Source of the DNA: Clostridiales bacterium
GTDB lineage: Bacteria; Bacillota; Clostridia; Christensenellales; UBA3700
Direction of reading: 5' to 3'
Length of the DNA: 32,922 bases
Assembly: GCA_014799645.1 (NCBI GenBank)
Contig: JAAVHQ010000001.1
Coordinates: forward strand, 30,009 to 62,930
Part shown: positions 424 to 23,868 of the stretch, piece by piece
Numbering within the stretch: position 1 is the stretch's first letter
Layout of the letters: each line of letters opens with the position of its first letter
Position numbers and translations under genes: made by a program
Notes under the pieces: model-generated
What the model saw: only the letters and a program-made list of their open reading frames with translations
The model's database searches: none
What the model was told of the DNA's origin: nothing

Positions 424-452
424 TTGACAAACGTGAAATATTGTATTATAAT
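424..452 (+). promoter_or_regulatory. Sigma-A type promoter for the BREX operon
   Basis: TTGACA (424-429), 17-nt spacer, TATAAT (447-452); GGAGG Shine-Dalgarno (SD) at 471-475 before the TTG at 484. Confidence 0.85.
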
Positions 453-1087: not shown

Positions 1088-1693
1088 ATGGCGGAAAGAA
1101 GTTTAAATGATAGATTTGTTGAGCTTGAAGATAGAATGATAAGTGTAGAGGCTTTAACACGTTATGGCACGGCAAATGACTTGAAGTTTTACATATTTGA
1201 TTATAATCCAAAAGATGAGCTTGTAGTTCGAAAAGAGGTTAAGAAGTTAAAAGAGCGAAATCCTAACATAATAGAATTTGATCTTTATGATATGATGATG
1301 CAGATTATCGATGATGAAGGATATATGGAAGATATAATCCGCATGGAGCAAGAGTATGATAGAAAATTATTATTGTCTGAAATTTTTCAACCATTGTTAT
1401 CGGTAGAAGAGGCAGATAATCGATTATTGGAAATGTTTATTGATAGAGCCGAGGATAACGGAGATAAAATAGTTCTTATAACAGGTATTGGGAAATCCTA
1501 TCCCGTAATAAGAAGCCACACTATATTAAATAATTTGCAGAGCATATTTAGACGTAATCCTGTTGTGATGATGTATCCTGGCAGGTTCGAGATAAAGAAT
1601 TTAATGACATTGAGGCTGTTTGAACGGCTTGATGATGACAATTATTACAGAGCATTCCCACTAGTGGAAAGGAGGAAAGGAAATGATTATTAA
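1088..1693 (+). CDS. brxB: BREX protein BrxB (DUF1788)
   Basis: Motifs FYIFDYNPKDE, ITGIGKSYPVIRSHTILNNL, MMYPG and NYYRAF. Confidence 0.92.
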   Translation: MAERSLNDRFVELEDRMISVEALTRYGTANDLKFYIFDYNPKDELVVRKEVKKLKERNPNIIEFDLYDMMMQIIDDEGYMEDIIRMEQEYDRKLLLSEIFQPLLSVEEADNRLLEMFIDRAEDNGDKIVLITGIGKSYPVIRSHTILNNLQSIFRRNPVVMMYPGRFEIKNLMTLRLFERLDDDNYYRAFPLVERRKGNDY

Positions 1694-4600
1694 GGATTTA
1701 TTTAAGAAGGAGATCGATAGAAGCATTCAAGGTGTCGTTACCATTGGTAATGAGGATGAATGCCAAAAATTGCAGGAGCTTGAGGAGTATGTTTGCACCG
1801 ATGAGATAACGAAGTCTTTCCGTACTTTTTTCCGCAAATATAGGGAATCAATTTCTGTTCCAACGGAGAAAATAGGTGTTTGGATAACAGGCTTTTTTGG
1901 TTCTGGTAAGTCACACTTTTTGAAAATACTTGGATATATTCTTGAAAATGAGCTAGTTGTGGGTAATGAAGCGGTAAATTATTTTGAAGAAAAAATACAA
2001 GATCAAATGATTCTTGCCGACATAAAGCAATGTGCTAAAGCTAATAATAAAGTAGTTCTTTTTAATATCGATTCAAAGGCAAAATCAGATTCAAAGAATC
2101 GTTCGCAAGCTATTATGGATATTATGTTGCGCGCCTTTAATGAATCAGTTGGATACTGTGGATCTTCCCCGTGGGTTGCGGATATGGAAAGAACCTTAGA
2201 TAGTGAGAATTTACTGGAAGCGTTCATTAATAAATTTGAGGAATTGTCGGGCAGGAATTGGAGACAAACACGCGCCAAAGCTTTACTTAATCGGGATTAT
2301 ATCATCAAATCTCTTGTTGTGGCTCGTGGCATGAGCGAAGATAGTGCCAAAGATTTTGTTGACGATCAGATGAGACATTTTACAAACACAACAGAGGACT
2401 TTGCAAAAATAGTAAATGACTATTGCAAAAAGAACAAAAAGCGTGTTGTGTTTCTTATGGATGAGGTTGGGCAATTTATCGGAACAAATGGCGAACTTAT
2501 GCTTAACCTACAAACTTGTGTAGAAGATTTAGGCAAATATTGTCGTGGACAAGCATGGGTAGTCGTTACTTCTCAGCAAGAGCTGAAGGCAATGATTGAA
2601 AGTACAAAAGCAAAGCAAAACGATTTCTCGAAGATTCAAGGTCGTTTTGATATACGCCTTTTGTTAAGCGGATCAAATGCGGACGAAGTTATCAAGAAAA
2701 GAATACTAGAGAAAAAGGATATAGCAGTTACGCCTCTTAAGACACTATATGAAACTATCGGAAGCAAGATATCAAATCTTATTCTTTTTGATGGCAGACC
2801 GACTTGGAGTGGGTATGCAGATGCTGAGGAATTCAAGGACGTATATCCGTTTGTTTCGTATCAATTTGAATTATTGCAAAAAGTTTTCGAATCGATACGT
2901 GAGCACGGTATGAGTGAGGGAAAACATCTTTCACAAAATGAGCGTTCGCTTTTGAGTGCTTTTCAAGAATCAGCAAAGAAAATTGCAGATTATGAAACGG
3001 GGATATTAGTCCCATTTGACAGTTTCTATCAAACCATAGAACAGTTTATAGACTACGATATAAAAACAGTATTCTCCAATGCTGAGCGCCGTACAAGTCT
3101 TGATAAATTTGCTATTAGAGTTTTGCGTGTTCTTTTTATGATAAAGCACGTGAAAGAAATGCCGGCAACTATCAATAGACTTGCTACTTTAATGGTTGAA
3201 AGTGTAAACGAAGATAAGGCTGCATTAAAAAATCGTATTTATGAGGCGTTAAAGTTACTAGAAGAAGAAACATTAATACAACGCAATGGAGAAGTATACG
3301 ATTTCTTGACTAACGCAGAGCAGGACGTAAATAAGCAAATTAACAATATGCCCCATAATGAAGGAGATGTGCAAAGAAGCATTCTCGATATTGTATATGA
3401 TAGAGTGCTTGATAATAATAAACTGCGTTATGAAAACCGCTATGATTTTTCTTTGAATCGTATAGTAGATCAAGAGTCTAAAGGTTCATTCAGCCAAGAT
3501 AGTATCACTCTAAAAATCTTTACAAATTTTTCGGATCTGCATGATGAGGCTACTTTTGCAGCCGAATCAGCAAGAACAAATGCTGTGGTAGTTGATATGA
3601 CGGCAGGAACGTATATTGATGAATTGATTCGCGCTAATAAAATTAATATATTTAAACGTAATAATAGCGCATCAATGTCTGCTGCAATGACTGAGATAAT
3701 GAGCAAGAAATCCGCTGAGTATTCCGAGAGAATGAAACGCGCTGAAGATATAATCAGGCAAGTTCTTCGTACAGCTCCTATTTATTTGAATGGTAATAAA
3801 CTTGATATTAAAGAAAAAGATGGAAGAGATAGATTGACAGATGCATTGAAAGAAATGGTCAAGCAAGATTATTATAAGCTTGGACTTGTTTCTTATTTCT
3901 ATAACGATTCGAGAGCAGTATTTGAGGTTCTGGATGATAATATGGAAACAATGTTGGGTAGTGATTTTACGCATGACTCAAATGCTGCTGCATACTCTGA
4001 GATATTCGAGAAGATAAAAAATGATAAGTCCCTAGGTAGAAGAATTACAGTCAAGGGTTTGTTGGATTTCTTTTCTAAGAAGCCTTATGGATGGCGTGAA
4101 ATTGATGTTTTAGGTATGATTGCAACGCTTTGGAAAAAGAGCGCATTACAGATTGTAATACATGAAAATTTGGTTGACGCGAACAACCGTATGTTCAAGA
4201 ACGACTTCTCGCGTAAAAATGGCATTGATACTATGGTTATTAGAATTCAGGAAAAGATTGATGATAATATCCTTTATCAAGTCAAGAAGATAATGCTTGA
4301 TACATATGCCGAGAATTTGCCAATTGAAGAAAAGAAATTGAAAGAAGGTATTGTAAGTTTCTTTGAGCGTAAGCGTGATTTCCTATCTAATCTCAAGGTA
4401 AAGTATGGAGTTGAATATGCAGGCAGTAGAGTAGTTGCTGAAATATATCGAGATTTTGAATCTATTTTACGCTCGACAGACACAATTACGATATTCAACG
4501 AAATCATTTCTCGAAAAGATAGATTGTCTAATCACGCAGAAGAATTAGAGCAATTAGAGAGTTTCTATAAAGAAGGAAGCAATCAACAGCAAAATTATAA

Positions 4601-5219
4601 AGATGCAACATTGATTGCCGATTGGTATCGCGATAACTATATGCTGAATGATTTATCAAATTTATCCGAAGTTATTGATAAGATTAACGAGATACTAGCA
4701 CTCGAAATGCCATTTTCGAAGATGACCGAACTTGCGAATCTTGTTTTTAAGGCAAGAGAAATAAAAGAAACAATTCTTGCAGAAAAGTGTAAGCGAACTA
4801 AAAAGAGTTTGGAAACCGATAGAGATGCAGTCAACAAAGAGATGCGTGAGGCACTTGAACTCGAACTTACTGCTGAGCAAAAGAAAAGAATTGAAGATAA
4901 GGCAGAAGAATTGAATAAAACATATGACTCTTGGTTGGGGAATTTGCTTCCCAATACACCAAATATGGAGGCATACATCACATCTAGCCAGAATGCGCTT
5001 TCGAGATTTAAGGAATTTATTTCAATAATCATTACAGAAAAACGCGCTGGTGTGGAATCTACAAAATCTATTCGTAGCAAACGTGTAAAGGTAATTGAAT
5101 GTGTTCCTGTGGCTAATAAAAAAATAAAGACTAAAGATGACATAGAAAAGGTCGTAGCAACTATTAGGGAAATATTGCTTTCCGAACTCGTCGATAACGA
5201 TGAAATCAACCTTGACTGA
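1683..5219 (+). CDS. brxC: BREX P-loop ATPase BrxC
   Basis: 1178 aa; Walker A GFFGSGKSHFLK, Walker B FLMDEVGQF, FSKIQGRF. Confidence 0.95.
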   Translation: MIIKDLFKKEIDRSIQGVVTIGNEDECQKLQELEEYVCTDEITKSFRTFFRKYRESISVPTEKIGVWITGFFGSGKSHFLKILGYILENELVVGNEAVNYFEEKIQDQMILADIKQCAKANNKVVLFNIDSKAKSDSKNRSQAIMDIMLRAFNESVGYCGSSPWVADMERTLDSENLLEAFINKFEELSGRNWRQTRAKALLNRDYIIKSLVVARGMSEDSAKDFVDDQMRHFTNTTEDFAKIVNDYCKKNKKRVVFLMDEVGQFIGTNGELMLNLQTCVEDLGKYCRGQAWVVVTSQQELKAMIESTKAKQNDFSKIQGRFDIRLLLSGSNADEVIKKRILEKKDIAVTPLKTLYETIGSKISNLILFDGRPTWSGYADAEEFKDVYPFVSYQFELLQKVFESIREHGMSEGKHLSQNERSLLSAFQESAKKIADYETGILVPFDSFYQTIEQFIDYDIKTVFSNAERRTSLDKFAIRVLRVLFMIKHVKEMPATINRLATLMVESVNEDKAALKNRIYEALKLLEEETLIQRNGEVYDFLTNAEQDVNKQINNMPHNEGDVQRSILDIVYDRVLDNNKLRYENRYDFSLNRIVDQESKGSFSQDSITLKIFTNFSDLHDEATFAAESARTNAVVVDMTAGTYIDELIRANKINIFKRNNSASMSAAMTEIMSKKSAEYSERMKRAEDIIRQVLRTAPIYLNGNKLDIKEKDGRDRLTDALKEMVKQDYYKLGLVSYFYNDSRAVFEVLDDNMETMLGSDFTHDSNAAAYSEIFEKIKNDKSLGRRITVKGLLDFFSKKPYGWREIDVLGMIATLWKKSALQIVIHENLVDANNRMFKNDFSRKNGIDTMVIRIQEKIDDNILYQVKKIMLDTYAENLPIEEKKLKEGIVSFFERKRDFLSNLKVKYGVEYAGSRVVAEIYRDFESILRSTDTITIFNEIISRKDRLSNHAEELEQLESFYKEGSNQQQNYKDATLIADWYRDNYMLNDLSNLSEVIDKINEILALEMPFSKMTELANLVFKAREIKETILAEKCKRTKKSLETDRDAVNKEMREALELELTAEQKKRIEDKAEELNKTYDSWLGNLLPNTPNMEAYITSSQNALSRFKEFISIIITEKRAGVESTKSIRSKRVKVIECVPVANKKIKTKDDIEKVVATIREILLSELVDNDEINLD

Positions 5220-5230
5220 TAGGAGTATAT

Positions 5231-7120
5231 ATGGATAAAAGAGCATTACAACTTTATGCAATGTGGGCAAAGGATAATTTGGAAAAACAAGTAGAAGTTT
5301 CCTTAAAGATGATTGGTATCAATGGGGACACAGATATCAAAGAATCAAGAGTCATAGGAGATTATACTGTTATTGAGAATGATCCTATTTCATATCCTAA
5401 AGAATTGCATAGTAAGCGTCAAATGATAGTCGAACTTATTAAGAGTGATGGATATAAAACTACAATAGAGGAGTTTGCATATACGTGGTTTAATCGTTTT
5501 GTGTCTTTACGCTTTATGGAGGTACATGACTTTTTGCCGCATGGTTTCCGATTGCTTTCTTCACGAGAGGGTAGTATAGAGCCTGAAATATTAAAGAATC
5601 TTCCGTTTGTAAAAGACGACCTGGAACTTGATTTAACACAATGCGAGAAACTTAAAGCCACAGGAATTGAGGATCTATATAGATATGTGCTATTCCGTCA
5701 ATGCAAGGCATTATCGGGAATATTACCAATGTTATTCGAAGCAGATAATGATTGCTTAGAATTATTATTACCTAAGACGCTTTTACTTGGCGATACAGTG
5801 ATTACAAAACTTGTGGCACTTGGAGAAGATGTGTTCCTCGAAGATATAGAAGTAATTGGTTGGCTGTATCAATTTTATATATCTGCGAAAAAAGACGCTG
5901 TTTATAAAGAAAAGAAGACAATAACAAAAGATACGTTGCCAGCCGTTACGCAGTTGTTCACACCGGATTGGATTGTGCGTTATATGGCAGAAAACTCATT
6001 GGGGAGGCTCTGGTTAGAAAGTTATCCAGCATCCCCATTGCGCAATGAGATGAAGTATTTTGTTCCTGAGGCTGTTCAGCCAGAAGAGGTGCAGCGCAAA
6101 ATTGATTCAGTAAAATATACATCGGTAAATCCAGAAGATATCAAGATAATTGAGCCGTGTTGTGGCTCTGGGCATATCCTTGTATATGTATTTGATTTAT
6201 TATATAAAATTTATGAAGAGAAAGGTTATCAAAAGCGTGATATACCTACGTTAATATTATCCAAAAACATATGTGGTCTCGATGTTGATAAACGCGCATC
6301 GCAGCTTGCAGCATTTTCGCTTGTAATGAAGGCGAGAAGTGTTAATCCTCGGTTTTTTAACTCTAATTATTATGTAAAGCCACAAGTATACGAAATATGG
6401 GATTCTCGTGTACTACATAGAATGAGATATAAGAAATTATTAGAAGAGACAAATCTTCTTTCGGCTGAGCAGATAGAGGATATTGAGTATTTGGCAGAAC
6501 AATTCCGTTATGCTAAAACGATAGGCTCATTACTCAAGATAAAACAAATGAATTGGGACCGCATAGATAACACAATAAATATACTTGAGCAAAAAGTAGT
6601 TTACAACGTGTTTAATCTAGAATTGTTGAATATAGCAATTCCACTTATTAAAAGGCTTGTAGTGCAGGCAAAAATACTTGCAAATAAATATGACGTTATG
6701 ATTACGAACCCGCCATATATAGGTATATCATCAATGGAATCGCAAGTGAAAGACTATGCTGTAACGTTTTATCCAAACAGCAAAACTGATATGTTTGCTA
6801 TGTTTATGGAGACAGAGTTTGTAAAACCAAATGGGTTCTGCGCTATGATAAATATGCACAGCTGGATGTTCCTTTCAAGTTATGAGAATTTGCGCAAGTC
6901 AATTTTGATGACAAAAGAAATAGTAACTATGGCTCATCTGGGTGCAAGGGCGTTTGAGACAATAGGTGGCGAGGTTGTTCAAACGACAACATTTGTAATA
7001 CGCAATGGAAACTTTGGCGGTAACGGAGTTTATTTCAGACTAGTGGATAGCAGTGATAAGGAGAATGATTTCCTTAAAACCCTTAGAAATGCGGGGGGTG
7101 GGGGTACTCTACATAGTTAG
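5231..7120 (+). CDS. pglX: PglX (BrxX) adenine methyltransferase, N-terminal and catalytic part of a split gene
   Basis: AYTWFNR, TQLFTPDWIVRYM, motif I EPCCGSG, motif IV NPPY; stops five codons after the G-tract, at the start of the TRD. Confidence 0.92.
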   Translation: MDKRALQLYAMWAKDNLEKQVEVSLKMIGINGDTDIKESRVIGDYTVIENDPISYPKELHSKRQMIVELIKSDGYKTTIEEFAYTWFNRFVSLRFMEVHDFLPHGFRLLSSREGSIEPEILKNLPFVKDDLELDLTQCEKLKATGIEDLYRYVLFRQCKALSGILPMLFEADNDCLELLLPKTLLLGDTVITKLVALGEDVFLEDIEVIGWLYQFYISAKKDAVYKEKKTITKDTLPAVTQLFTPDWIVRYMAENSLGRLWLESYPASPLRNEMKYFVPEAVQPEEVQRKIDSVKYTSVNPEDIKIIEPCCGSGHILVYVFDLLYKIYEEKGYQKRDIPTLILSKNICGLDVDKRASQLAAFSLVMKARSVNPRFFNSNYYVKPQVYEIWDSRVLHRMRYKKLLEETNLLSAEQIEDIEYLAEQFRYAKTIGSLLKIKQMNWDRIDNTINILEQKVVYNVFNLELLNIAIPLIKRLVVQAKILANKYDVMITNPPYIGISSMESQVKDYAVTFYPNSKTDMFAMFMETEFVKPNGFCAMINMHSWMFLSSYENLRKSILMTKEIVTMAHLGARAFETIGGEVVQTTTFVIRNGNFGGNGVYFRLVDSSDKENDFLKTLRNAGGGGTLHS

Positions 7121-7823
7121 TGCAGAGGTATTCTTTTCTATTCCTAGTAACTTAATTATTTATTGGTTGAGCAATGCTATAATCGAAGTTTTTGGGAAGA
7201 GTAAAACATTGTCATCAATAGCAACTCCAAAACAGGGATTAGCTACTGGTAAAAATGATTTGTTTGTTAGATTATGGCATGAGGTCAAGACTGAAAAACT
7301 TTGCCTGGATGCAACGGACTCTATTCAAGCAGTATCTACTGGGAAGAAATGGTTTCCTTATAACAAGGGCGGGGCATATAGGAAATGGTATGGGAATAAT
7401 GATTGCATTATAAACTGGGAAGCAAATGGTCGAGCGATCAGTAATTATTCTGGATCAGTTATAAGAAATCCAAATTACTATTTCTTTGAGTCAATCTCAT
7501 GGTCCAAGATTGCAAGTGGTCCAATTGCATTTAGATATAAGCCTAATGGACACATATTTGATGTAGCAGGATGCAGTATATTTTGCGAACATTCTCAATT
7601 GGAGTATTTGTTAGGAGCAGTAAACTCTAATGTTATAATGAATATCATAAAATCAACTGCGCCTACACTTAATTATGAGGTTGGTCAAGTAGCAAATATC
7701 CCTATTATTTTCGAGAACGAAAATGCAGTTCGCGAAGTAGTGGACAAAAATATAAAAATAAGTAAAGCGGATTGGGATTCTTTTGAAGAGTCATGGGGCT
7801 TTGGAAAGCATCCACTAATATAA
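7053..7823 (+). CDS. pglX: PglX target-recognition cassette 1, in the +1 frame relative to the methyltransferase ORF (PglX homology begins near 7100)
   Basis: QGLATG..FVRLWHEV, KWFPYNKGGAYRKWYGN, DWDSFEESWGFGKHPLI*; no well-spaced SD for its candidate starts. Confidence 0.85.
   Translation: MIRRMISLKPLEMRGVGVLYIVSAEVFFSIPSNLIIYWLSNAIIEVFGKSKTLSSIATPKQGLATGKNDLFVRLWHEVKTEKLCLDATDSIQAVSTGKKWFPYNKGGAYRKWYGNNDCIINWEANGRAISNYSGSVIRNPNYYFFESISWSKIASGPIAFRYKPNGHIFDVAGCSIFCEHSQLEYLLGAVNSNVIMNIIKSTAPTLNYEVGQVANIPIIFENENAVREVVDKNIKISKADWDSFEESWGFGKHPLI
7093..7104 (+). repeat. Interrupted poly-G tract (G6-T-G5) at the PglX methyltransferase/TRD1 frame junction
   Basis: GGGGGGTGGGGG in AT-rich DNA; losing one base puts 5231 in frame with the ORF ending at 7823. 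Confidence 0.8.
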
Positions 7824-7826
7824 CAG

Positions 7827-7863
7827 CAGGAGGATTATTATTCTCCTGAAAACAGGAGAGAAT
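7827..7863 (+). promoter_or_regulatory. Two alternative hairpins controlling access to the SD of TRD cassette 2
   Basis: ATTCTCCTG (7840-7848) can pair with CAGGAGGAT (7827-7835) or with CAGGAGA (7853-7859), which contains the SD. Confidence 0.6.
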
Positions 7864-8592
7864 ATGCCAAATTTGAAATATGAAACAAAGATGGACACTT
7901 ATAGTAAATTACCGGGTAATCCTATAGCCTATTGGATTGGATTAGACCTAATTAAATGTTTTGAGGAAGGTAAGAGATTTGATTCGTTTGGAGAGCCTAA
8001 GTCTGGGGTTATGACAGGTGATGATAATAAGTTTATTCGCCTTTGGTTTGAACCAATTTCTAAAAAAATTGGGTTCGGTCTTAAGAATGCGATAGAAATG
8101 AAAGAATCTATGAAGAAATGGTTTCCAGTAACGCGTGGTGGATCATATAGGAAGTGGTTCGGTAATCTTGAAGAAATAGTAAATCTAGAAAATGGTGGTT
8201 ATGCTATAAAGAATAATGGCAAGAATTATCGTCTAAGAGATGAAAAGTATTATATGCAAGAAGGACTGACTTGGACAATGATTACGACTACCAATTTATC
8301 TGTACGTATAGCTGAAGCTGGCGTATTATTTGGTAATGGAGGCCCAACAACATTTGTTAAAGAAAAAGAGTATTATTTGCTAGGATTGTTAAATAGTAAA
8401 GTCGTTAATGCAATCGTAAGTGTACTTAATCCTACGATGAATATTGTCATTAGCGACATCTGTTCAATTCCCGTTATTTTTAACAGGGTTGAGCCAGTTG
8501 AAACTATAGTTGCTAATAATCTTGTAATATCAAAATACGATTGGAATGCTTTTGAGACCTCATGGGATTTTAAAAGGCATCCATTAATTTGA
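7864..8592 (+). CDS. pglX: PglX target-recognition cassette 2, a stand-alone ORF
   Basis: Own SD AGGAG and ATG; LPGNPIAYW, KWFPVTRGGSYRKWFGN, DWNAFETSWDFKRHPLI*. Confidence 0.88.
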   Translation: MPNLKYETKMDTYSKLPGNPIAYWIGLDLIKCFEEGKRFDSFGEPKSGVMTGDDNKFIRLWFEPISKKIGFGLKNAIEMKESMKKWFPVTRGGSYRKWFGNLEEIVNLENGGYAIKNNGKNYRLRDEKYYMQEGLTWTMITTTNLSVRIAEAGVLFGNGGPTTFVKEKEYYLLGLLNSKVVNAIVSVLNPTMNIVISDICSIPVIFNRVEPVETIVANNLVISKYDWNAFETSWDFKRHPLI

Positions 8593-8599
8593 GGTAATT

Positions 8600-8920
8600 A
8601 TGATAAGAGTTGTTTTAAAGAGTAAAAAAGAATTACACTATGCCGAGGCAATCATAGATGACAAAGAAACTTTAGTACTAAAAGGTGCAAAGATTAATTT
8701 AATTGAATCTTTTCCGCAAATGTCTCAAGCATTGATTCTATTGCGCAGAGATAGAATGTTAGTATCAGAGGATGGGGTATTGCTCAAAGATATAAAATTT
8801 ACTAGTCCAAGTACAGCTGCGCAGTTTGTTACTGGTAGAAGTGTAAACGGTTATATTGCTTGGCGCCCTAATGACGAAATAAGCCTTAAAGAATATCTTG
8901 GGAAAAGGAGAGAAATTTGA
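8600..8920 (+). CDS. DUF4357 / RAMA-like domain protein
   Basis: Signature DIKFTSPSTAAQFVTGRSVNGYIAW. Confidence 0.8.
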   Translation: MIRVVLKSKKELHYAEAIIDDKETLVLKGAKINLIESFPQMSQALILLRRDRMLVSEDGVLLKDIKFTSPSTAAQFVTGRSVNGYIAWRPNDEISLKEYLGKRREI

Positions 8921-10065
8921 TGAAAGAGACCCTTGTTGCACTTATAGACGATATTTCAAATATAGAAAAACATTTTTATATTCCCTCAATGCCAGCGGGG
9001 GCATTTGCCGTTCCAGTAGAGCAAATTAGCAATAGTCAGGAATTTCAATTATGGAGACAGAAAGTTTTACGTGAGTTGCATGAACTCTATTCTGTACATG
9101 ACAAAGACAAATTTCTAAAAGGGACAATTGAAGCTTTGACAAAAGATTTCAATACTTGGCAAGAACGAAAAGATTTTAATAATCTTAAAGCCAAATTGCT
9201 GGCGATACTAGATAATATCGATGTTTATTATGCGCCTGCAGTAGAAAAAGAGAATCTTGATAAACCTGCAATGATTTTTATCAGTCATTCAACAAAAGAT
9301 AAAGAATATGCGACAGCGTTAGTTAATTTGTTTGAGAGTATGGGATTAGATGAAGATACTGTTTTTTGTAGTTCAGTTCCAGGCTATGATGTAAAATTGG
9401 GAAATGACATATATGAACATCTAAGAAATTTATTTCAGACAAGAGATTTACATATTGTATATATGTTATCTAAGAACTTTTATAATAGTCCTGCAAGTTT
9501 AAATGAAATGGGGGCTGCATGGGTACTTAAAAATGAAGTTACATCTATATTGTTGCCTGGATTTAGTTTCGATGAAATGAAAGGAGTAGTGGATAATCGA
9601 GAAATAGCTATAAAACTAGATGTCGATGAAATAGAATTAAAGGACAAGCTTAATCAGTTATATGAAACAATAATTAACGAGTTTAAGTTGAAGAAAAAAA
9701 GTAGTACACTTTGGGAATGTAAACGTGATTCTTTCATAAAAAGAGTTGTAGGTATACATGGAAGCGTAGAATCCAAAGTGGCTAAGGCAGAGATATTAAG
9801 CAAAGAAGCAGAGGAGATTTTAAAGAATGCTATTCAGAGTTATGATGCACAAATTATTGTTGCTCATTATATAACTGGTGGGAAATGTATTCAAGTAGGC
9901 TGTAAAAGCTATTCGGAATCAATGGGAGCAAGGGAATTTAGTAAATGGGACGCGGCATTTGATGAATTGTTAAGAATCGGATATGTTAAGGCGATTGGAA
10001 CGAAGGGGTCTGTTTTCCAGGTTACAAATGCTGGGTTTAAATATATTGAGGAGAAAGTTAAATAG
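8920..10065 (+). CDS. TIR-domain protein with N- and C-terminal extensions
   Basis: IFISHSTKD, VFCSS.PGY, LSKNFYNSPASLNEMGAAW (catalytic-type Glu); start overlaps the upstream stop as TGATG. Confidence 0.85.
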   Translation: MKETLVALIDDISNIEKHFYIPSMPAGAFAVPVEQISNSQEFQLWRQKVLRELHELYSVHDKDKFLKGTIEALTKDFNTWQERKDFNNLKAKLLAILDNIDVYYAPAVEKENLDKPAMIFISHSTKDKEYATALVNLFESMGLDEDTVFCSSVPGYDVKLGNDIYEHLRNLFQTRDLHIVYMLSKNFYNSPASLNEMGAAWVLKNEVTSILLPGFSFDEMKGVVDNREIAIKLDVDEIELKDKLNQLYETIINEFKLKKKSSTLWECKRDSFIKRVVGIHGSVESKVAKAEILSKEAEEILKNAIQSYDAQIIVAHYITGGKCIQVGCKSYSESMGAREFSKWDAAFDELLRIGYVKAIGTKGSVFQVTNAGFKYIEEKVK

Positions 10066-10075
10066 GAGATTGATT

Positions 10076-11011
10076 ATGGGTAGATTAATTGAAGATAAGT
10101 ATAGAGCTTGGGAAGAAGAGTGCGAGCAACGATTTAATCAACTCAAGGCAAACGAGGAGGAACTCAACCGTATTTTCATTGAGATTTATGGTCTACAAGA
10201 TGAGCTTACTTCCGAAGTAGAAGATAAGGATATAACAGTGCGCAAAGCTGATTTGCAACGTGAGATTAAGTCACTAATCTCCTATCTTATAGGTGTTGAG
10301 TTTGGTAGGTATTCTCTTGATGTGGAAGGGCTTGTGTATGCGGGCGGAGAATGGGATAGTTCTAAGTACACTACATATATTCCTGATGAAGATGGAATTG
10401 TTATGGTGTATTCTAAACTTGGTATGCAAGATGGACTGGCAGCGCGTATTATTAAATTAATAAAGCATATCTATGGGGAAGATACATATCGTCAAAATAT
10501 AGATTTTATAGCAGAAGCGCTTGGTAAAAAACAGAATGAAGCATCCGAAGAGACATTAAATCGGTATATTTGTGATGATTTCTATACTGACCATTTAAAG
10601 ATTTACCAAAAGCGTCCTATCTATTGGATGTTTTCAAGTGGCAAAAATAGTGGTTTCAAATGTTTGATTTATATGCATAGGTACAATGAAGATACAGTTG
10701 CGAGAATCAATGCAAAGTATTTTCTTCCAGAATCCACTAGATTAAAGAATGAACTTGACGAAATTGAAATAGCGGTGGAAGGCAGTGAAGGACGAGATAA
10801 GATCCGATTGGATAAAGAGCGATCCAAGATAGCCGCTGCTTATAACGAAGCAATTGAATATGGTCAAATACTCGATAATATAGCAAATCAATATATTAAA
10901 ATTGATTTAGATGATGGAGTTAAAGTAAACTATGAAAAATTCCAAAATATAGAGATTGTAACTGACGGTGGAACGAAAGTTAAAAAGAACTTGCTAGTTC
11001 CTATTAAGTAA
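10076..11011 (+). CDS. pglX: PglX C-terminal part, translated separately
   Basis: SD AGGAG 10064-10068 and ATG 10076; RFNQLKANEEELNRIFIEIYGL, FGRYSLD, YQKRPIYW, IDLDDGVKVNY. Confidence 0.9.
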   Translation: MGRLIEDKYRAWEEECEQRFNQLKANEEELNRIFIEIYGLQDELTSEVEDKDITVRKADLQREIKSLISYLIGVEFGRYSLDVEGLVYAGGEWDSSKYTTYIPDEDGIVMVYSKLGMQDGLAARIIKLIKHIYGEDTYRQNIDFIAEALGKKQNEASEETLNRYICDDFYTDHLKIYQKRPIYWMFSSGKNSGFKCLIYMHRYNEDTVARINAKYFLPESTRLKNELDEIEIAVEGSEGRDKIRLDKERSKIAAAYNEAIEYGQILDNIANQYIKIDLDDGVKVNYEKFQNIEIVTDGGTKVKKNLLVPIK

Positions 11012-11021
11012 GAGGTGTATA

Positions 11022-13544
11022 ATGGCAAATATCGATTATCAAGAAGCGATAAAAGAGATAGAGAAGATTTTTCGCGCAGATATTTTAACGCGAAAGATAG
11101 TTTTTTGGTACGATGCTCCTGCTAATTTCAAGGATGATATTGAGACGGCATCGTTTGATTTCTGTAGGCTTTTGGTGTGTCAAAATAATGAATTCGCTAT
11201 AAAGAAAACTATAGAGAAAGATGACACCACAAGCAACATACTTGTCTATATTCCTTCTGAAAAACCGAAGGATACTGAAAATTGGCTTTTGGATATTTTG
11301 ATGTACAGCGAGGAATATTACGCAGATACTGTTGCGCTTACTATGCGCCATCTTGGACTTTCAAATCCAGACTTACGCAAAGTAATAGAAAAGCATACAA
11401 AGTTTTTTGATAGTTCACAAAGAAACAGAAAACTTGAGAATTATGTTTCATTAAATGATGGGATGACTACAAATAATTTTATGCTTGCTATGATATCGGT
11501 ATTAGTAAAATCATCTGTTCGTTCCATAGAGGCTATTTTGACAGAACTTGTTTTTGACAATAGTGATCATTCTAAGTATAAAGAACTTTGCAAGTTTGGT
11601 TTTGAGGATTATCTATGGGATGAAATTGCAAAAGAGTATGATTATTCCGGAGATCAAAAAATAGATAGTCTCATCAAGAAATTTTTGTTTACAGCTATGC
11701 TTGAACAAGATATGCAGCTTGGGACATTGCCGTCATTTTATAAGCAATTTATAATTGATGGAGAAGGAAAAAATGGCGCAAAGAGTTTTGTGCACCATAT
11801 TAAGCAAGATCCACGTTATAGAGAACTGCAACTCAACGTCGCAACAGATCTTAAAATTGATGGGCTTTTGGTGGCAAGAGATGCTAGTTGTATTGGGACG
11901 AGCGATATATTCGAGTGTATTGAGAGTTGCGTGATAAAGAAAGTGTCTGCGAGCTTGGTGAGTGGTAGCCTTGATTATGATGCGTTTGTTAAGATAATTA
12001 ATGATAGAAACAACTCTATGTGGCAAGCTGAACATAAGGATGAGTATTCTTTTTTACGATCGGCAATAGAGTTTTTGCGTTTAGTGGATGTTTCTATTCC
12101 GCATGATTTGTCAGCTGTAGAATATATTAAACTTTATACTAACATATTATATAAAGTCGATATGAATTATAGGCATCTTTGTATTAGCTATGACAAGATA
12201 GAAAATCCCATTTTTGAAATTGAAGAATTATGTTGTAGAATAGAGTCACATTATGAGCAGAATTATTTGGGAGAACTAGGAAGAGAATTCAGCGCAGCTG
12301 TTTCCAAACAAAATAAATGGGATTTCTCAGGTATTCAAAAAAGTTCGCAGTTCTATCAGCTTATTCAAAGGCAACAATATAAAAAGCAGTTTGTAATCAT
12401 TTCTGATGGATTAAGATATGAAGTTGGATATGAGATTTTCAATAGTATTAAGAATAATTCTGCACTGCGAGGCAAGGTCTCGATAGATTATGCAGTTTCA
12501 CCATTGCCGTCTGAAACAAGATTTGGTATGGCATCGCTACTTCCTCATAAAGAGCTTGCTTATATTGACGGATCCGTTTTAGTTGATGGAAAAGCATCAA
12601 ACTCTTTCGCTGCTCGGAATGAGATTCTAAAAGCGAAAAATGCAGGGCATGCTGCAATCGCATACGAAGAAATCAATCGTTTTACAAGAGACCAACTTCG
12701 TGTATACATGTCAGACAAGTCACTTGTGTATATTTATCATAATGTAATAGATAAAGCAGGAGAGCATAACGAAACAAAGGTGTTTGACGAAACGATAAAC
12801 GCAATTGAAGAAATTACATCACTGGTCAAGAAACTTTATAATAATCTACAGATATCTAATTTCTATATCACAGCAGACCATGGTTTCTTGTATAGACAGA
12901 ATGTAATAGGTGAATCTGAAAAATATAGTAATATAGTTTCGCAAAGTCCTATTGAGGCATCAAAAAGGTATGTGCTTACGGATGACGACAGTATTAGTAT
13001 TCCGTACACAACGGAATTTAGACTCGAAGAAATTCACGGAGATTTGCGAGTAATCAATCCGTATGGATATGACTTATTTAAAACACAAGGAGCAGGCTTA
13101 CAGTATGTTCATGGTGGAGCCTCTTTGCAAGAAACAATTATTCCTATTGTGCACATAAGCGAACTTAATGCGAAGAAAGGCGAAAAATTGTCACGCCCAG
13201 TTGGAGTTCGTTTAAAGAGCGTGACAAGAAAGATTACAAATAGGAGTTTCGCACTTGATTTTGAACAATATGAGAAAGTTGAAGATAAAGTACAAGCGAT
13301 TAATTGTGAAACATATTTCGTAGATGAAAATGGATATAAAGTTTCAGGGGAATATCGTTTTATTGCAAACTCTAGCAGTGATGATATCGCCACAAGGGTG
13401 ACTCGTATTAGGTTCACTCTTAAAAATATAGAATTTGATAGAAACAATCGTTACTATCTTATCTTGCGAAATGTAGAATCGGATAGCGAATATATTGAGA
13501 AAGAACAGTTCACGATTGATATTCTAGGATTTAGAACTTTTTAA
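11022..13544 (+). CDS. pglZ: BREX PglZ phosphatase/nuclease-fold protein
   Basis: IVFWYD, IISDGLRYE, LPSETRFGMASLLP, TADHGF, YVHGGASLQE. Confidence 0.95.
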   Translation: MANIDYQEAIKEIEKIFRADILTRKIVFWYDAPANFKDDIETASFDFCRLLVCQNNEFAIKKTIEKDDTTSNILVYIPSEKPKDTENWLLDILMYSEEYYADTVALTMRHLGLSNPDLRKVIEKHTKFFDSSQRNRKLENYVSLNDGMTTNNFMLAMISVLVKSSVRSIEAILTELVFDNSDHSKYKELCKFGFEDYLWDEIAKEYDYSGDQKIDSLIKKFLFTAMLEQDMQLGTLPSFYKQFIIDGEGKNGAKSFVHHIKQDPRYRELQLNVATDLKIDGLLVARDASCIGTSDIFECIESCVIKKVSASLVSGSLDYDAFVKIINDRNNSMWQAEHKDEYSFLRSAIEFLRLVDVSIPHDLSAVEYIKLYTNILYKVDMNYRHLCISYDKIENPIFEIEELCCRIESHYEQNYLGELGREFSAAVSKQNKWDFSGIQKSSQFYQLIQRQQYKKQFVIISDGLRYEVGYEIFNSIKNNSALRGKVSIDYAVSPLPSETRFGMASLLPHKELAYIDGSVLVDGKASNSFAARNEILKAKNAGHAAIAYEEINRFTRDQLRVYMSDKSLVYIYHNVIDKAGEHNETKVFDETINAIEEITSLVKKLYNNLQISNFYITADHGFLYRQNVIGESEKYSNIVSQSPIEASKRYVLTDDDSISIPYTTEFRLEEIHGDLRVINPYGYDLFKTQGAGLQYVHGGASLQETIIPIVHISELNAKKGEKLSRPVGVRLKSVTRKITNRSFALDFEQYEKVEDKVQAINCETYFVDENGYKVSGEYRFIANSSSDDIATRVTRIRFTLKNIEFDRNNRYYLILRNVESDSEYIEKEQFTIDILGFRTF

Positions 13545-13556
13545 TGGAGGAAGGTT

Positions 13557-15581
13557 ATGGACGCATTAGATAAAAAAGTATTTGAGATATTTTCTGGAAG
13601 AGTTGTGCCTAAAGGCGCAACGAAAAAGATTAAAAATAGCGCAAATGTGCCAACGTATGTTTTGGAATATTTGTTGGGTACATATTGTACTTCTGATGAT
13701 GAGGCAGAAATCGAGGAGGGAATAGAGCAAGTAAAACGCATTCTCTCTGATAATTACGTTCGTCCAGACGAAGCGGAGAAAATTAAGGCAAAAATCAAAG
13801 AAAAAGGTAATCATACAGTTATTGATAAATTGAGTGTAAAACTCAATGAAAGAAATGACACTTTTGAAGCCGATTTTATGTTTCTTGGCATTAATAAAAT
13901 TTATGTTCATCCTAAGTATGTTCGCCAATACGAAAAATTACTTGCGGGAGGCATTTGGTGTATTGTCGATATGTCATACTATTTTAATGAGGACGAAAAT
14001 GCTAGTCCATTTATTATAAATGATATTACGCCAATTCAAATGCCAAATCTTGATAAGAATGAAATTATAGAAGCGAGAAAGCAATTCTCAAAGGAAGAGT
14101 GGATTGATTTTATTTTGCGTTCTACTGGTATGGAACCTACTCAATTTGATTATAGAGTAAAATGGCATCTTCTTGCACGACTTGCTCCTCTAGTCGAAAA
14201 TAATGTCAATCTTTGTGAGTTAGGCCCACGTGGTACGGGGAAGTCACATATTTATAAGGAGCTCTCTCCTAATTCAATTTTGATTTCTGGTGGACAGACA
14301 ACAGTTGCAAATCTCTTTTATAATATGGGTAGAAGGCAAGTCGGACTTGTAGGCTTGTGGGATTGTGTCGCTTTCGATGAAGTTGCTGGTATCAATTTCA
14401 AAGATAAAGATGGCGTCCAAATTATGAAAGACTATATGGCCTCAGGTTCGTTTGCTCGCGGTAAGGATGAAATTCAGGCAAATGCTTCTATGGTTTTTGT
14501 GGGCAATATCAATCAAAGCGTTGATCTGCTTTTGAAAACGTCGCACTTATTCGAGCCGTTTCCAAGTGCTATGATAGATAGCGCTTTCCTTGATCGTATG
14601 CATTGCTATATTCCAGGTTGGGAAATCCCAAAGATGCGACCAGAATTCTTTACTGATAATTATGGATTTATATCAGATTATATCTCTGAATTTTTCCGAG
14701 AAATGAGAAAAGTACCGCAAACCGATGCTTTCGACAAGTATTTTAGGCTTGGCAGATGTTTGAATCAAAGAGATACCATTGCAGTAAGGAAAATGGTGTC
14801 AGGATTGACAAAAATTATTTATCCTGACGGAGTTGTCACGGAGGAAGAAATAGAGGAAATTCTGAAATATGCCATTGAAGGACGAAGACGTGTAAAAGAG
14901 CAACTTAAGAAGATTGGAGGAATGGAATTTTATGATGTCCAATTCTCATATATTCGCAATGCTAATATGGAGGAGTATTTTGTACCTGTCTTAGAGCAAG
15001 GCGGTGGTAAATTGATTTCTGAGGGCGTAGGCAAGCCAGGACATATCTACACGGTTGCAAATGGAAGTAATGGAATGAAAGGACTATTTAAGTTCGAGAC
15101 CACGATAGCAGAAGGTAGCGGTAAATTTGAGGTGACAGGATTGACTAGTTCGCAGGTTGTTAAGGAATCTGTCAAAATTGCTCAAAACTATTTTAAGGCC
15201 AATGCAAAACAAATAAGTCGACTCATATCGTTAGATTCCAAAAACTATGTTATGCAAGTACAGGATTGCCAAGGTGTAGGGCTTGATAGCAACGTCTCAC
15301 TTGCCGTCCTTGTAGCATATTGCAGTTGTGCGTTGAATAAATCTGTGTTGCCGCAGCTTTGTGTTTTGGGTGCTATGAGCATAGGCGGAACAATTAATAA
15401 AGTTGAAGAATTAGCATCTACGTTGCAAGTTTGCTTTGATGCAGGAGCGAAAAAAGTACTGTTGCCAATGAGTAGTGCTATTGATATAGCTACGGTACCG
15501 AGTGATTTATTTGCTAAATTCCAAATATCATTTTATAGTAGTCCCGAAGATGCGGTAATAAAGGCTTTGGGGATAGAATGA
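13557..15581 (+). CDS. brxL: BREX BrxL (AAA+ and Lon-like C-terminal domain)
   Basis: NVPTYVLEYLLG, Walker A GPRGTGKS, AFDEVAG, Lon-like C-terminus. Confidence 0.95.
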   Translation: MDALDKKVFEIFSGRVVPKGATKKIKNSANVPTYVLEYLLGTYCTSDDEAEIEEGIEQVKRILSDNYVRPDEAEKIKAKIKEKGNHTVIDKLSVKLNERNDTFEADFMFLGINKIYVHPKYVRQYEKLLAGGIWCIVDMSYYFNEDENASPFIINDITPIQMPNLDKNEIIEARKQFSKEEWIDFILRSTGMEPTQFDYRVKWHLLARLAPLVENNVNLCELGPRGTGKSHIYKELSPNSILISGGQTTVANLFYNMGRRQVGLVGLWDCVAFDEVAGINFKDKDGVQIMKDYMASGSFARGKDEIQANASMVFVGNINQSVDLLLKTSHLFEPFPSAMIDSAFLDRMHCYIPGWEIPKMRPEFFTDNYGFISDYISEFFREMRKVPQTDAFDKYFRLGRCLNQRDTIAVRKMVSGLTKIIYPDGVVTEEEIEEILKYAIEGRRRVKEQLKKIGGMEFYDVQFSYIRNANMEEYFVPVLEQGGGKLISEGVGKPGHIYTVANGSNGMKGLFKFETTIAEGSGKFEVTGLTSSQVVKESVKIAQNYFKANAKQISRLISLDSKNYVMQVQDCQGVGLDSNVSLAVLVAYCSCALNKSVLPQLCVLGAMSIGGTINKVEELASTLQVCFDAGAKKVLLPMSSAIDIATVPSDLFAKFQISFYSSPEDAVIKALGIE

Positions 15582-15634: not shown

Positions 15635-16363
15635 ATGTATAATTTTAAGAATTCAAAATCAAATATAATCAACATATTAAAATCAAAGACTCCAATAGAA
15701 GATAAAGAAAAAATTCCAGCTAATCAAGAATTTACTTATGCCAATGCTGTCAGAACATGGGTAAGTGCAATATTTGTTGATATAAAAAGTTCAAGCGAAT
15801 TATTTAAGAATAGGGATGAGAAATTAGCAAGATTGTTAAGAGCATTTACATCTGAAATTATTACGATTTTTCAAGACTCCAATAACTATAATCAAATAGG
15901 AATTAGAGGCGACTGTGTATATGCAATTTACTCTACTCCCCAAAAGGATGATATTAAAGATGTATTTGATATTGCTGTAAAAACAAATACATTTATGAAA
16001 ATGTTTAACAAATTATTAACAGAGCAAGGTTATAGCAATATTGGAGTTGGCATAGGATTGGGAACTGATAAGCAATTAATTATAAAGGCAGGAAGATCAG
16101 GAACTGGAATAAATGATAAGATTTGGATAGGAGATGCTGTTGTTGATGCCTCGAATTTATCTTCTATAGCAAATAGATACGGCTATAAAAAAATTGCAAT
16201 GAATAGCTGCTTTTACAATAATATTAAAAAGTATTATGAGAAAAAGCCTTGGTTTAATTATATTTCGAATTCAACTTATTATAACGATGGATTTTACGAA
16301 TGCGATATAGTTAACACTGAATTTGATAACTGGATAAAAGGTGGAATGAAAGACAATGTCTAA
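15635..16363 (+). CDS. pycC: Class III nucleotide cyclase, Pycsar PycC-like
   Basis: AIFVDIKSSS, RGDCV, IGVGIG, IWIGDAVVDASNL; overlaps a transmembrane effector gene. Confidence 0.8.
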   Translation: MYNFKNSKSNIINILKSKTPIEDKEKIPANQEFTYANAVRTWVSAIFVDIKSSSELFKNRDEKLARLLRAFTSEIITIFQDSNNYNQIGIRGDCVYAIYSTPQKDDIKDVFDIAVKTNTFMKMFNKLLTEQGYSNIGVGIGLGTDKQLIIKAGRSGTGINDKIWIGDAVVDASNLSSIANRYGYKKIAMNSCFYNNIKKYYEKKPWFNYISNSTYYNDGFYECDIVNTEFDNWIKGGMKDNV

Positions 16364-16859
16364 TGAAAAATTAAATGAAAGTTTGCAAGTAATACAAGGT
16401 CAAATTGAGAAATTTGATAATAAAGCGAGCATTTTAATTGCGATTGTGAGCATAGTATTTGCTATCAGTTTAGAGACGTTAAATGTATTTCAGCAAATAT
16501 TTGTACAAGATATGACACAGAAGATTTTCATTAAATACATATTGGCAATAGTGTTTTTATGTTTTTATTTTACATCTTTTATTCTAGAGATGTTTTTCTT
16601 AATCTTAGTTATTTTTCCTAGGAAAAAGAAAAAGAGTGAGTGTCAGTCACTTTCATATTATTTGGATGTTTCCAAGATGACGAAAGAAGAAATTGAAAAG
16701 CAAGCCAGCGTTATGAATGAATCCGCAATTATAGTGGATCAATTGAGCGTTAATGCAAAAATATGCGCTAAGAAGCACAAGAATTTTGTAATCGCTATAT
16801 GGTTAATGATTCCACTAGTGTTATTTATGATAGCATTAACCTTTTTATCAATAATATAG
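16356..16859 (+). CDS. pycTM: Pycsar transmembrane effector
   Basis: DNKASIL, hydrophobic helices, FPR, ICAKKH and a terminal hydrophobic helix; coupled to the cyclase gene. Confidence 0.8.
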   Translation: MSNEKLNESLQVIQGQIEKFDNKASILIAIVSIVFAISLETLNVFQQIFVQDMTQKIFIKYILAIVFLCFYFTSFILEMFFLILVIFPRKKKKSECQSLSYYLDVSKMTKEEIEKQASVMNESAIIVDQLSVNAKICAKKHKNFVIAIWLMIPLVLFMIALTFLSII

Positions 16860-21760: not shown

Positions 21761-21946
21761 ATGGAATTATTTAAAGACTATCCCGACGTTGTAAGTGTTG
21801 AACAAGTGTCGGAGATGTTGCACATTGGACAAGTGCTTGCATATAGACTTGTCCGCAGCGGTGAGATTAAATCACGCAAAGTAGGACGCAGATATATCAT
21901 CGCAAAGCGAAACGTAATCGAATTTATAAATGAGGAGGCAGCATAA
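21761..21946 (+). CDS. Excisionase-like helix-turn-helix protein (HTH_17)
   Basis: 61 aa, YPDVVSVEQVSEMLHIG...YRLVRSGEI..RKVGRRYII; SD GGAGG; coupled to the integrase gene. Confidence 0.88.
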   Translation: MELFKDYPDVVSVEQVSEMLHIGQVLAYRLVRSGEIKSRKVGRRYIIAKRNVIEFINEEAA

Positions 21947-23672: not shown

Positions 23673-23868
23673 TTGCGACGTCAAATTAAATAAACCTTTT
23701 GTAATTCCCAGATTAATGGGAGTCCAGACTTTGTTTGCGTGAAAGGTAGGATGAAAATTGGTAGTAATACCTGTTCCGACCTGCTTTCCACGGAAAAAGG
23801 TTTATTTGGCGTCGCAACCAAAGGGACGGTATTCTACGGTGCCGTTCCGCAAGGGGCGGCATCTTTTT
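23673..23868 (+). ncRNA. Unassigned structured RNA (multi-stem leader with terminator/antiterminator)
   Basis: Long closing stem 23673-23700 with 23795-23817, internal hairpins with a GNRA loop, and alternative 3' hairpins followed by a T-run. Confidence 0.6.

Follow-up and report, generated by a model that had tools for sequence, protein, structure and literature searches.

The DNA analysed here, called the window throughout, is a whole stretch of 32,922 nt (32.9 kb) from a Clostridiales bacterium (GenBank assembly GCA_014799645.1, contig JAAVHQ010000001.1, positions 30,009 to 62,930 of the forward strand). It carries a type 1 bacteriophage exclusion (BREX) operon in which the methyltransferase gene pglX is encoded as pieces that span positions 5231–11011 of the plus strand. 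An earlier examination of the letters alone (the sequence-only reading) had described a PglX in four pieces, with two interchangeable target recognition domains (TRDs), and had suggested that it assembles as a multi-subunit enzyme.

All four pieces were found at the positions given by that reading, both as open reading frames and by their fit to the NCBIfam BREX-1 PglX profile NF033452 (length 1210), which they tile together. The core gene (5231–7120, plus strand) encodes 629 amino acids, comprising an N-terminal bundle and the N6-adenine methyltransferase domain; it covers profile positions 1–636 and alone scores 661 bits, the curated cut-off being 500 bits. Residues 6–615 of the core align to residues 6–635 of E. 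coli BrxX (PDB 9EWZ). The gamma-class N6-adenine methyltransferase motifs CCGSGH (310–315) and NPPY (493–496) are intact, as had been claimed, and occupy columns that are invariant in 54 aligned cores. The TRD1 cassette (7105–7823, plus strand, in an open frame of 7053–7823; profile positions 662–899) has 233 open codons and is not joined to the core in the window sequence. TRD2 (7864–8592, plus strand; profile positions 655–899) is a stand-alone gene of 242 amino acids, whose residues 8–242 align to BrxX 644–870 and whose ATG lies 5 nt 3' of the Shine-Dalgarno (SD) sequence AGGAGA (7853–7858). The C-terminal part, here called the tail gene (10076–11011, plus strand; profile positions 906–1209), encodes 311 amino acids that form a long first helix and a C-terminal domain; residues 57–292 align to BrxX 946–1190, and an SD, AGGAG, is found 7 nt 5' of the ATG. 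A single PglX chain of ~1200 amino acids with an integral TRD is not encoded in the window, as it is interrupted by the stop codons at 7821–7823 and 8590–8592, by the separate tail gene and by a frameshift at 7093–7104.

TRD1 and TRD2 are ~36% identical over their full length, start at equivalent positions and both end in HPLI followed by the stop codon, in keeping with the proposal that they are divergent paralogues. The claims that TRD2 and the C-terminal part each have their own SD and ATG, and that the locus lacks an adjacent recombinase and long repeats, also held: the nearest integrase gene is located at 21946–23598, 11 kb away, and the longest exact match between TRD1 and TRD2 is 15 nt. 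No relevant inverted repeats were found in the window.

The change of frame between the core and TRD1 sits in GGGGGGTGGGGG (G6TG5; 7093–7104, plus strand), a tract that the sequence-only reading had overlooked and that carries the sole run of at least six G in the 32.9-kb window. In the core's own frame the stop codon (7118–7120) follows five codons past the tract, and an ATG at 7089, in the frame of TRD1, precedes the tract without an SD sequence. The core and TRD1 are currently out of frame, and the loss of one base or the gain of two would fuse them; in frame, the tract codes for two to four glycines. According to structure alignments its location maps to residues 638–675 of BrxX, the flexible hinge loops that connect the two jaws of this protein (PMC11842806).

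Relatives of the locus were collected with a split-type tail as the query, and the resulting sample of 135 loci (54 from species genomes, 80 from metagenomes and the window) is therefore biased, its proportions not being population frequencies. The protein search with the tail gave at least 8000 matches; among the 120 listed, identity ranged from 72 to 100%, and 109 of these 120 protein clusters were exactly 311 amino acids long and started with MGRLI or MGKLI. A scan of viral contigs with the tail protein found no relative. At least one TRD was visible 5' of the tail in 118 of the 135 loci (window included), and 23 of the 118 have two or three tandem TRD genes in direct orientation, all of which end in HPL[ILV] and a stop codon except for one cassette of locus L071 that is fused to the tail. 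On a tail tree of 108 rows, PglX is a continuous single chain in 59 loci and split in the other 49, of which 26 have a single TRD and 23 have two or three.

The split falls at a fixed position. Continuous forms read SWDFKxHPLI, then one to three residues, then LIADxFxxWE; where the gene is split, HPL[IV] is followed at once by the stop codon of the TRD gene, and the tail gene, preceded by an SD, begins with MG[RK]LI[AS]DK. The closest relative, Pumilibacter muris CLA-AA-M08 (L005; tail 90% and BrxC 86% identical to the window), has the layout core, TRD, TRD, a 254-amino-acid gene, an SpbK-like TIR gene and tail, with a G9 tract that is out of frame. L010, with a tail 76% identical to that of the window, encodes a continuous single-chain PglX. 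The complete record NZ_OY725717.1 of Collinsella aerofaciens (L141, 5620–9969) contains a pglX of 836 amino acids, a gene of 199 amino acids and a tail gene of 322 amino acids annotated as "hypothetical protein"; the annotation pipeline PGAP treats these pieces as ordinary genes, with no pseudogene flag. Since this organism is an actinobacterium, the split form extends beyond the Bacillota. The sequence-only reading had called for a search for other loci with the same breakpoints and a variable number of TRDs, and had named breaks unique to this locus, with continuous pglX in close relatives, as a result that would speak against it. Such loci do exist, many of them in gut bacteria: L005 and 22 other multi-TRD loci share the breaks, with two or three TRDs, and the occurrence of the same breakpoints in dozens of independent contigs is more than chance.

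Several loci of the sample show other peculiarities. In L053 (7969–10675) two opposite-strand genes (224 and 324 amino acids, resembling an insertion sequence by their layout) part tail residues 4–80 from 67–292. Insertion-sequence integration was considered as a cause of the split and rejected, as it applies to L053 only. Some loci with continuous PglX have another core-plus-TRD match 3' of the first pglX (L015, 10899–13493; L035, 13540–16155; L029, 13357–14064), meaning that their cluster holds two methyltransferases of the PglX type. L006, a record labelled as an Odoribacter metagenome-assembled genome, has BREX genes that hardly differ from the ones in L060 and in other loci of gut Bacillota-like type (TRDs 98–99% identical); the mismatch between its Bacteroidota label and its Bacillota-like BREX could reflect a binning error or a recent transfer.

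Both the core and a complete tail are visible in 98 loci, 21 of them with multiple TRDs and 77 with a single TRD. Of the 21 multi-TRD loci, window included, in which the core junction can be seen, 20 have a G-run of at least six at the core/TRD1 joint and 19 have a run of at least seven (G7–G13); a run of at least seven occurs in none of the 77 single-TRD loci, and the longest run in the window is G6. Tracts with identical flanks differ in length: G7, G7, G9, G10 (five times) and G13 in one lineage, G9, G10, G10, G11 and G11 in a second and G11, G11 and G12 in a third. The tract is in frame in 12 of the 20 loci that have it, encoding a core-TRD1 protein of ~860 amino acids, and out of frame in eight, including the window. 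In both wrong frames, all 26 cases (13 distinct sequences) reach a stop codon within 0–5 codons of the tract; as a control, random positions within these genes give a median distance to a stop of 7 codons, with 41% stopping within five. Two features of a contingency locus (slipped-strand phase variation) are seen at the joint, namely a frame-setting tract inside the reading frame (interrupted in the window) and length polymorphism in the relatives.

We consider it very unlikely that the frameshift at 7093–7104 is a homopolymer error in the assembly and that core and TRD1 are truly continuous. Homopolymers are error-prone and the genome is a 34-contig draft. Only four public gut-metagenome runs, from one study, contain parts of the window, as assembled contigs, and these break off at 7080, 7104 and 7106, where two contigs end and two start; none spans the tract or confirms its length, and contig ends at or beside the tract carry no information on its heterogeneity, just as parts left uncovered are not a finding. 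However, runs of only 6 and 5 bases are short for such errors, and an error here would touch the first joint only, leaving TRD2, the two genes that follow it and the separate tail gene as they are. For the relatives, the in-frame series of 7, 10 and 13 points to genuine length differences on which selection has acted, and is not what read errors at random would produce.

The contig of run X3 (1535 bases) spans window positions 7104–8620, that is TRD1, TRD2 and the start of a DUF4357 gene, at ~90–95% identity, with 60 bases at 7405–7466, within TRD1, swapped for 78 others. A related strain therefore has the same two-cassette array, with an insertion-deletion difference in TRD1.

The window differs from its relatives in one respect that could point to local decay, namely that the layout is functional in the family and the copy in the window is dying, a G-to-T change having broken the tract so that the frame was lost and the switch locked off. 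Its tract is the only interrupted one among the 20, the core and TRD1 are out of frame, and the ATG before the tract lacks an SD. Yet TRD1 with its 233 open codons, TRD2, both genes between TRD2 and the tail, the tail gene and the other BREX genes are all intact, and the G6 and G5 runs are still able to slip. Moreover, core and TRD1 are likewise out of frame in seven other loci whose tracts are uninterrupted, so that this is a normal state. We therefore regard decay of the window copy as unlikely.

Selection on the pieces was estimated from nonsynonymous (dN) and synonymous (dS) divergence, relaxed selection having been named by the sequence-only reading as a result that would count against it. 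Purifying selection was found instead. Relative to L005, for which dS is saturated, dN is 0.065 for the tail and 0.13 for the core, compared with 0.08 for BrxC and 0.105 for PglZ. Close pairs of spare cassettes, pooled, differ at 19 synonymous and 16 nonsynonymous sites (dN/dS ~0.2), and pairs of slot-1 cassettes, those that directly follow the core, at 19 and 7 (dN/dS ~0.09), the counts being small in both cases. TRD2 of the window and the slot-2 cassette of L092 differ with a dN of 0.21 and a saturated dS. The view that the breaks are not the result of random decay is hence supported by shared breakpoints, by retained ATG and SD signals and by purifying selection.

At the second joint the protein models agree with the position of the break. 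The AlphaFold model of TRD2 (mean predicted local distance difference test score, pLDDT, 90.3) consists of one TRD fold and a 24-residue terminal helix (209–232), followed by a disordered WDFKRHPLI; that of the tail (pLDDT 92.7) starts with four loose residues that lead into a 34-residue helix (5–38). These two long helices flank the break, and the cut thus falls in the loop that connects them. The two long spacer helices that follow the TRD of PglX were described by Went et al. as mimics of the dimerised spacers in Type I specificity subunits (PMC11341690), and we infer from the models that the helices of TRD2 and the tail may zip the TRD to the tail. A complex prediction of core residues 226–629 with the tail and TRD2 scored 0.87; the control, in which an unrelated protein replaced the core, scored 0.89, so the score is not core-specific and weighs neither way on binding. 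Since split forms account for 49 of the 108 tree loci, and 109 of the 120 clusters listed are exactly 311 amino acids long, it is strongly implied that the tail works as a separate, non-covalent C-terminal subunit.

The spare TRD cassettes carry their own translation signals. An ATG is present at an equivalent position, 15–25 codons before an IPGxPIAYW motif, in 27 of 27 spare cassettes (duplicates included), most of which also have a strong SD. A protein search with TRD2 found 139 relatives; among the 120 listed, 64 are 228–272 amino acids long, and 57 of these stand-alone proteins have an HPL-type ending. A specificity module that forms its own gene with its own translation start, as is the case for HsdS of Type I systems, is therefore found both in TRD2 of the window and in all 27 spare cassettes.

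Reassortment of cassettes is seen among related loci. TRD1 of the window is 68% identical to the slot-1 cassettes of L085 and L091, the cores of which are only 43% identical, and TRD2 is 72% identical to the slot-2 cassettes of L092 and L098. Among the near-identical loci L084–L094, slot-1 alleles X or W occur with slot-2 alleles Y or Z; similarly, the TRD alleles are A, B, C in L060, A, D in L061 and ?, B, C in L006. Repeats among the cassettes of one locus are short, 11–28 nt in most loci, and exact identity at the 3' end reaches 43–44 nt in L008 and L068, compared with at most 17 nt on the 5' side. No TRD on the opposite strand was found in the 135 loci. A recombinase-driven shufflon was rejected, there being no adjacent recombinase, no inverted cassette and no inverted repeat.

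These reassorted alleles and conserved 3' ends are what would be expected of the main rival to the reading that we favour (set out below). According to this rival, the tract is only an ON/OFF switch of PglX and BREX, the spare TRDs are a recombination stock that replaces TRD1 over evolutionary time, and BREX of the window is off. In Streptomyces coelicolor, a G tract is known to turn pglX ON and OFF (PMC4365076, citing Sumby and Smith 2003), and the jaws of BrxX are held together mainly by the hinge (PMC11842806), so that a core severed from its TRD may not assemble unaided; the latter point also counts against our own proposal. On the other hand, a silent stock needs neither a start codon nor a ribosome-binding site, and both are present: all 27 spare cassettes have an ATG, slot-2 cassettes have a conserved leader with a regulated-looking SD, and 57 stand-alone TRD clusters among the matches listed have an HPL-type end. 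As all cassettes are direct and share so little identity on the 5' side, simple recombination would delete them and not exchange them. In the multi-TRD loci, a small sample, no allele at least 60% identical was found in both slot 1 and a spare slot. Finally, L071 (1–2927) has no G tract. The core reading frame of this locus ends at a stop codon of its own, the TRD that follows begins with an ATG placed after GGAGG within the 3' end of the core gene, and a second TRD is fused to the tail as a protein of 550 amino acids; this is a constitutive cut at the hinge, with a gene boundary between core and TRD, in an otherwise intact locus. The starts, the ribosome-binding sites, the leader, the short repeats and the direct orientation weaken the ON/OFF switch with a cassette store, and we rate it as a possible but not a probable explanation.

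The spacer between TRD1 and TRD2 (7824–7863, plus strand) contains an SD-like segment, or pseudo-SD (7827–7835), an anti-SD (7840–7848) and the true SD of TRD2 (7853–7858). Two alternative hairpins can form in the window, one between segments 1 and 2 (−12.5 kcal/mol) and one between segments 2 and 3 (−11.6 kcal/mol). Eight distinct long spacers separate slot 1 from slot 2 in 21 loci; each of the eight has the three-segment element, with its SD-like segment 4–14 nt past the TRD1 stop. In the fold of minimum energy the true SD is paired in five of the eight spacers and the upstream segment in three. The sequences around the SD/anti-SD core are lineage-specific yet still complementary; a MAFFT alignment places the spacers of the lineages in different registers, and no single consensus structure can be written. 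The element is absent from the three distinct slot-2-to-slot-3 spacers, which are short.

From these two near-isoenergetic hairpins and their conservation, a translational gating of TRD2 may be envisaged. A ribosome halted at the TRD1 stop would cover segment 1 and free the anti-SD, which would then block the SD of TRD2; translation of TRD2 would consequently be favoured when TRD1 is unread.

The observations can be combined as follows. As the core and TRD1 form one protein of ~860 amino acids in 12 of the 20 tract loci, the design is best written as core-TRD1 (a phase-variable fusion), TRD2, cargo and C-terminal part. The sequence-only claim of a four-piece multi-subunit enzyme accordingly stands for the separate tail and for TRD2 as a gene of its own, and falls for the break between core and TRD1, which is a frameshift in a hypermutable G tract. 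We propose that PglX is a phase-variable, multi-subunit enzyme built from modules that are cut at two flexible loops, a reading, with TRD2 put to use in trans, that we hold to be plausible at slightly less than even confidence. The first joint is the hinge between methyltransferase and TRD, placed on a slipping G tract: in frame, core and TRD1 are fused through a few glycines, and out of frame, as in the window, the core ends within 0–5 codons and TRD1 is not made. The second joint, after HPLI, is a true gene boundary, and the 311-amino-acid tail is a separate protein that must re-associate non-covalently. TRD1 is followed by another one or two TRD genes, each with a ribosome-binding site, then by a slot for defence genes and by the tail gene. 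When the tract is out of frame, TRD2 would be translated and would work in trans with the TRD-less core; the core, the free TRD2 and the tail would assemble inside the BrxBCXZ complex, and slippage by one base would then change the recognition motif and not merely turn defence off. The more specific version, in which the hinge tract is a one-base specificity switch between fused TRD1 and free TRD2 (or TRD2 plus TRD3) that is gated by the spacer, co-regulates the cargo and needs no recombinase, is put forward tentatively and is rather doubtful.

Several points weigh against this proposal, besides the role of the hinge in BrxX. The T interruption of the window tract may mark a decaying, locked-off switch and, as the tract is also out of frame, the locus may be running on TRD2, be off or be starting to decay. 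With 12 of the 20 tracts in frame, free TRD2 seems redundant in most of the tract loci. Independent contrasts on supported branches number three, of which two agree, none opposes and one shows no difference (sign test p 0.5); with so few, the raw comparison of 19/21 with 0/77 is not readable as a statistical association. Furthermore, the block of poly-G tract, TRD1, spacer and leader looks horizontally shared between clades, so that a single origin followed by transfer is possible. Tract lengths were taken from short-read assemblies, in which homopolymers are prone to error, and the query bias described above applies to all proportions. As for the gating, the multi-TRD loci L068 and L071, whose slot-1-to-slot-2 spacers are short, have no hairpin; masking the ribosome footprint at the TRD1 stop left the predicted accessibility of the SD unchanged (0.23 vs 0.23 in the window); and in longer context the TRD2 SD is mostly paired with or without masking.

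The Type I specificity subunit HsdS, including that from orphan or plasmid-borne hsdS genes, works with the resident HsdM and HsdR as a separate exchangeable subunit, and carries both of its TRDs, along with two conserved helical regions, on a single chain. By analogy, recognition in the locus described here may reside on a separate exchangeable protein, with helical spacers beside the TRD mediating assembly. Unlike HsdS, TRD2 as modelled is not a pair of TRDs with conserved helical regions between them: every cassette consists of a single TRD that ends in one helix, the partner of which is on the separate tail protein. Compared with canonical BREX-1 PglX/BrxX (E. coli HS BrxX, PDB 9EWZ; Salmonella PglX, PDB 8C45), the domains, their order, the catalytic motifs and the operon are the same, whereas the chain is cut after the TRD, the hinge contains a slippery G tract, and extra stand-alone TRD genes and nested defence genes are present.

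Individual parts of the arrangement have precedents, namely a G tract in pglX, one reported split between N- and C-terminal parts and the separate specificity subunits of Type I systems. In the BREX-1 system of Brevibacterium casei, as presented by Milman et al. 2023, PglX is split into an N-terminal-plus-middle coding sequence and a C-terminal one, and the split was proposed by the authors as a means to vary the middle of PglX (PMC9881135). There, variation is by programmed inversions with a recombinase, whereas here the cassettes are direct, a recombinase and inverted repeats were not found, and a G tract precedes the TRD. The same report describes the pglX shufflon of Lacticaseibacillus rhamnosus, which resembles the present locus in having several alternative TRD segments in one BREX locus with constant N- and C-terminal parts, and which consists of inverted, promoterless cassettes without start codons next to a recombinase (PMC9881135); the spare cassettes here are direct, have their own ATG and lack an adjacent recombinase. 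In the Pgl system of S. coelicolor (BREX type 2), the length of a G-run in pglX switches the reading frame (PMC4365076, citing Sumby and Smith 2003). The enzyme there is a single chain that is simply turned ON or OFF, whereas here the tract is at the hinge between methyltransferase and TRD, codes for a glycine linker and co-occurs with spare TRDs. A 2025 review presents the TRD of BREX as an integral part of the methyltransferase (PMC12707154). In the literature that we consulted, no description was found of tandem stand-alone BREX TRD genes, of a G tract in the hinge or of a defence-gene slot inside pglX; supplements may hold relevant locus drawings.

PglX is the sole specificity factor of BREX, and if the widespread form with stand-alone TRD and tail is what it seems, the enzyme can be assembled from parts. 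This would help structural and engineering work, e.g. by allowing TRDs to be swapped without rebuilding a protein of 1200 amino acids, and would provide gut Bacillota with a recombinase-free way of varying the specificity of their defence. Annotation pipelines tend to call such loci broken pglX; the data presented here indicate that most are not. As a cultured carrier exists (P. muris CLA-AA-M08, L005), the model is directly testable.

The 1.5 kb between TRD2 and the tail gene, also overlooked by the sequence-only reading, holds two genes. The first (8600–8920, plus strand) encodes a DUF4357/RAMA-like protein of 106 amino acids (Pfam DUF4357, 1.4e-12; C-terminal part of PADLOC PDC-S14, 4.1e-17), a homologue of which occupies the same slot in L085. 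The second (8920–10065, plus strand) encodes an SpbK-like protein with a TIR domain (Pfam TIR_2, 3.4e-6; PADLOC spbK, 7.9e-62) and shares 64% identity with its counterpart in this slot of L005. Both are translationally chained to their upstream neighbours: the SD of the first gene overlaps the stop of TRD2, and a TGATG overlap joins the first gene to the second (ATG at 8920). In 50 split loci, the slot that separates the last TRD from the tail gene contains 39 families of open reading frames in varied combinations (for example in L060, 8091–9988; L056, 5793–9860; and L126, 7382–8221). These include SpbK-like TIR, DUF4357, Shedu SduA, PD-Lambda-3_B/Hypoth_Ymh and AbiJ-like proteins, as well as Schlafen AlbA_2 with HATPase_c_4, RiboL-PSP HEPN, RhuM, DUF2971 and a weak HipA-like match. 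Judged by this gene content, the slot behaves like a defence-gene hotspot nested within pglX, and the joint after the TRD would be a previously unremarked intragenic hotspot that carries known defence genes within a BREX operon.

The type 1 BREX gene set around pglX is complete (brxA, brxB, brxC, pglX, pglZ and brxL; Pfam and NCBIfam BREX_1_MTaseX), with all genes on the plus strand between 484 and 15581. Apart from pglX, the genes are full length, as had been claimed: brxA (484–1086; Pfam BrxA, 5.7e-38), brxB (1088–1693; Pfam BrxB, 5.7e-36), brxC (1683–5219; Pfam BrxC domains, residues 1–1178 being 86% identical to L005), pglZ (11022–13544; Pfam PglZ, 4.7e-46) and brxL (13557–15581; BrxL_ATPase, 1.8e-144, with BrxL_N and Lon_C). 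A promoter-like site, TTGACA-17-TATAAT (424–452, plus strand), lies 5' of brxA and matches the consensus at 12 of 12 positions; it is a consensus match only, the total of such sites in the window being not above that of shuffles. A consensus-match scan found no terminator-like sites on the plus strand between 884 and 14256, which fits a single long transcription unit.

Further defence genes follow the operon. Directly 3' of brxL is a Pycsar-like pair, consisting of a cyclase-like gene (15635–16363, a weak Guanylate_cyc match) and a PycTM effector gene (16356–16859), and next to it a Gabija-like pair of an OLD-family ATPase/TOPRIM gene (16875–18884) and a UvrD-like helicase gene (18869–20785). 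The GC content falls to ~0.27–0.29 over 16–21 kb of the window. Further downstream are the gene for the tyrosine integrase (21946–23598, 550 amino acids), a YpsA/SLOG gene (23758–24378), AbiH (24528–25793) and, on the minus strand, a large UvrD-type helicase gene (26458–28941). Together, BREX, the downstream defence genes and the integrase look like an integrated defence island.

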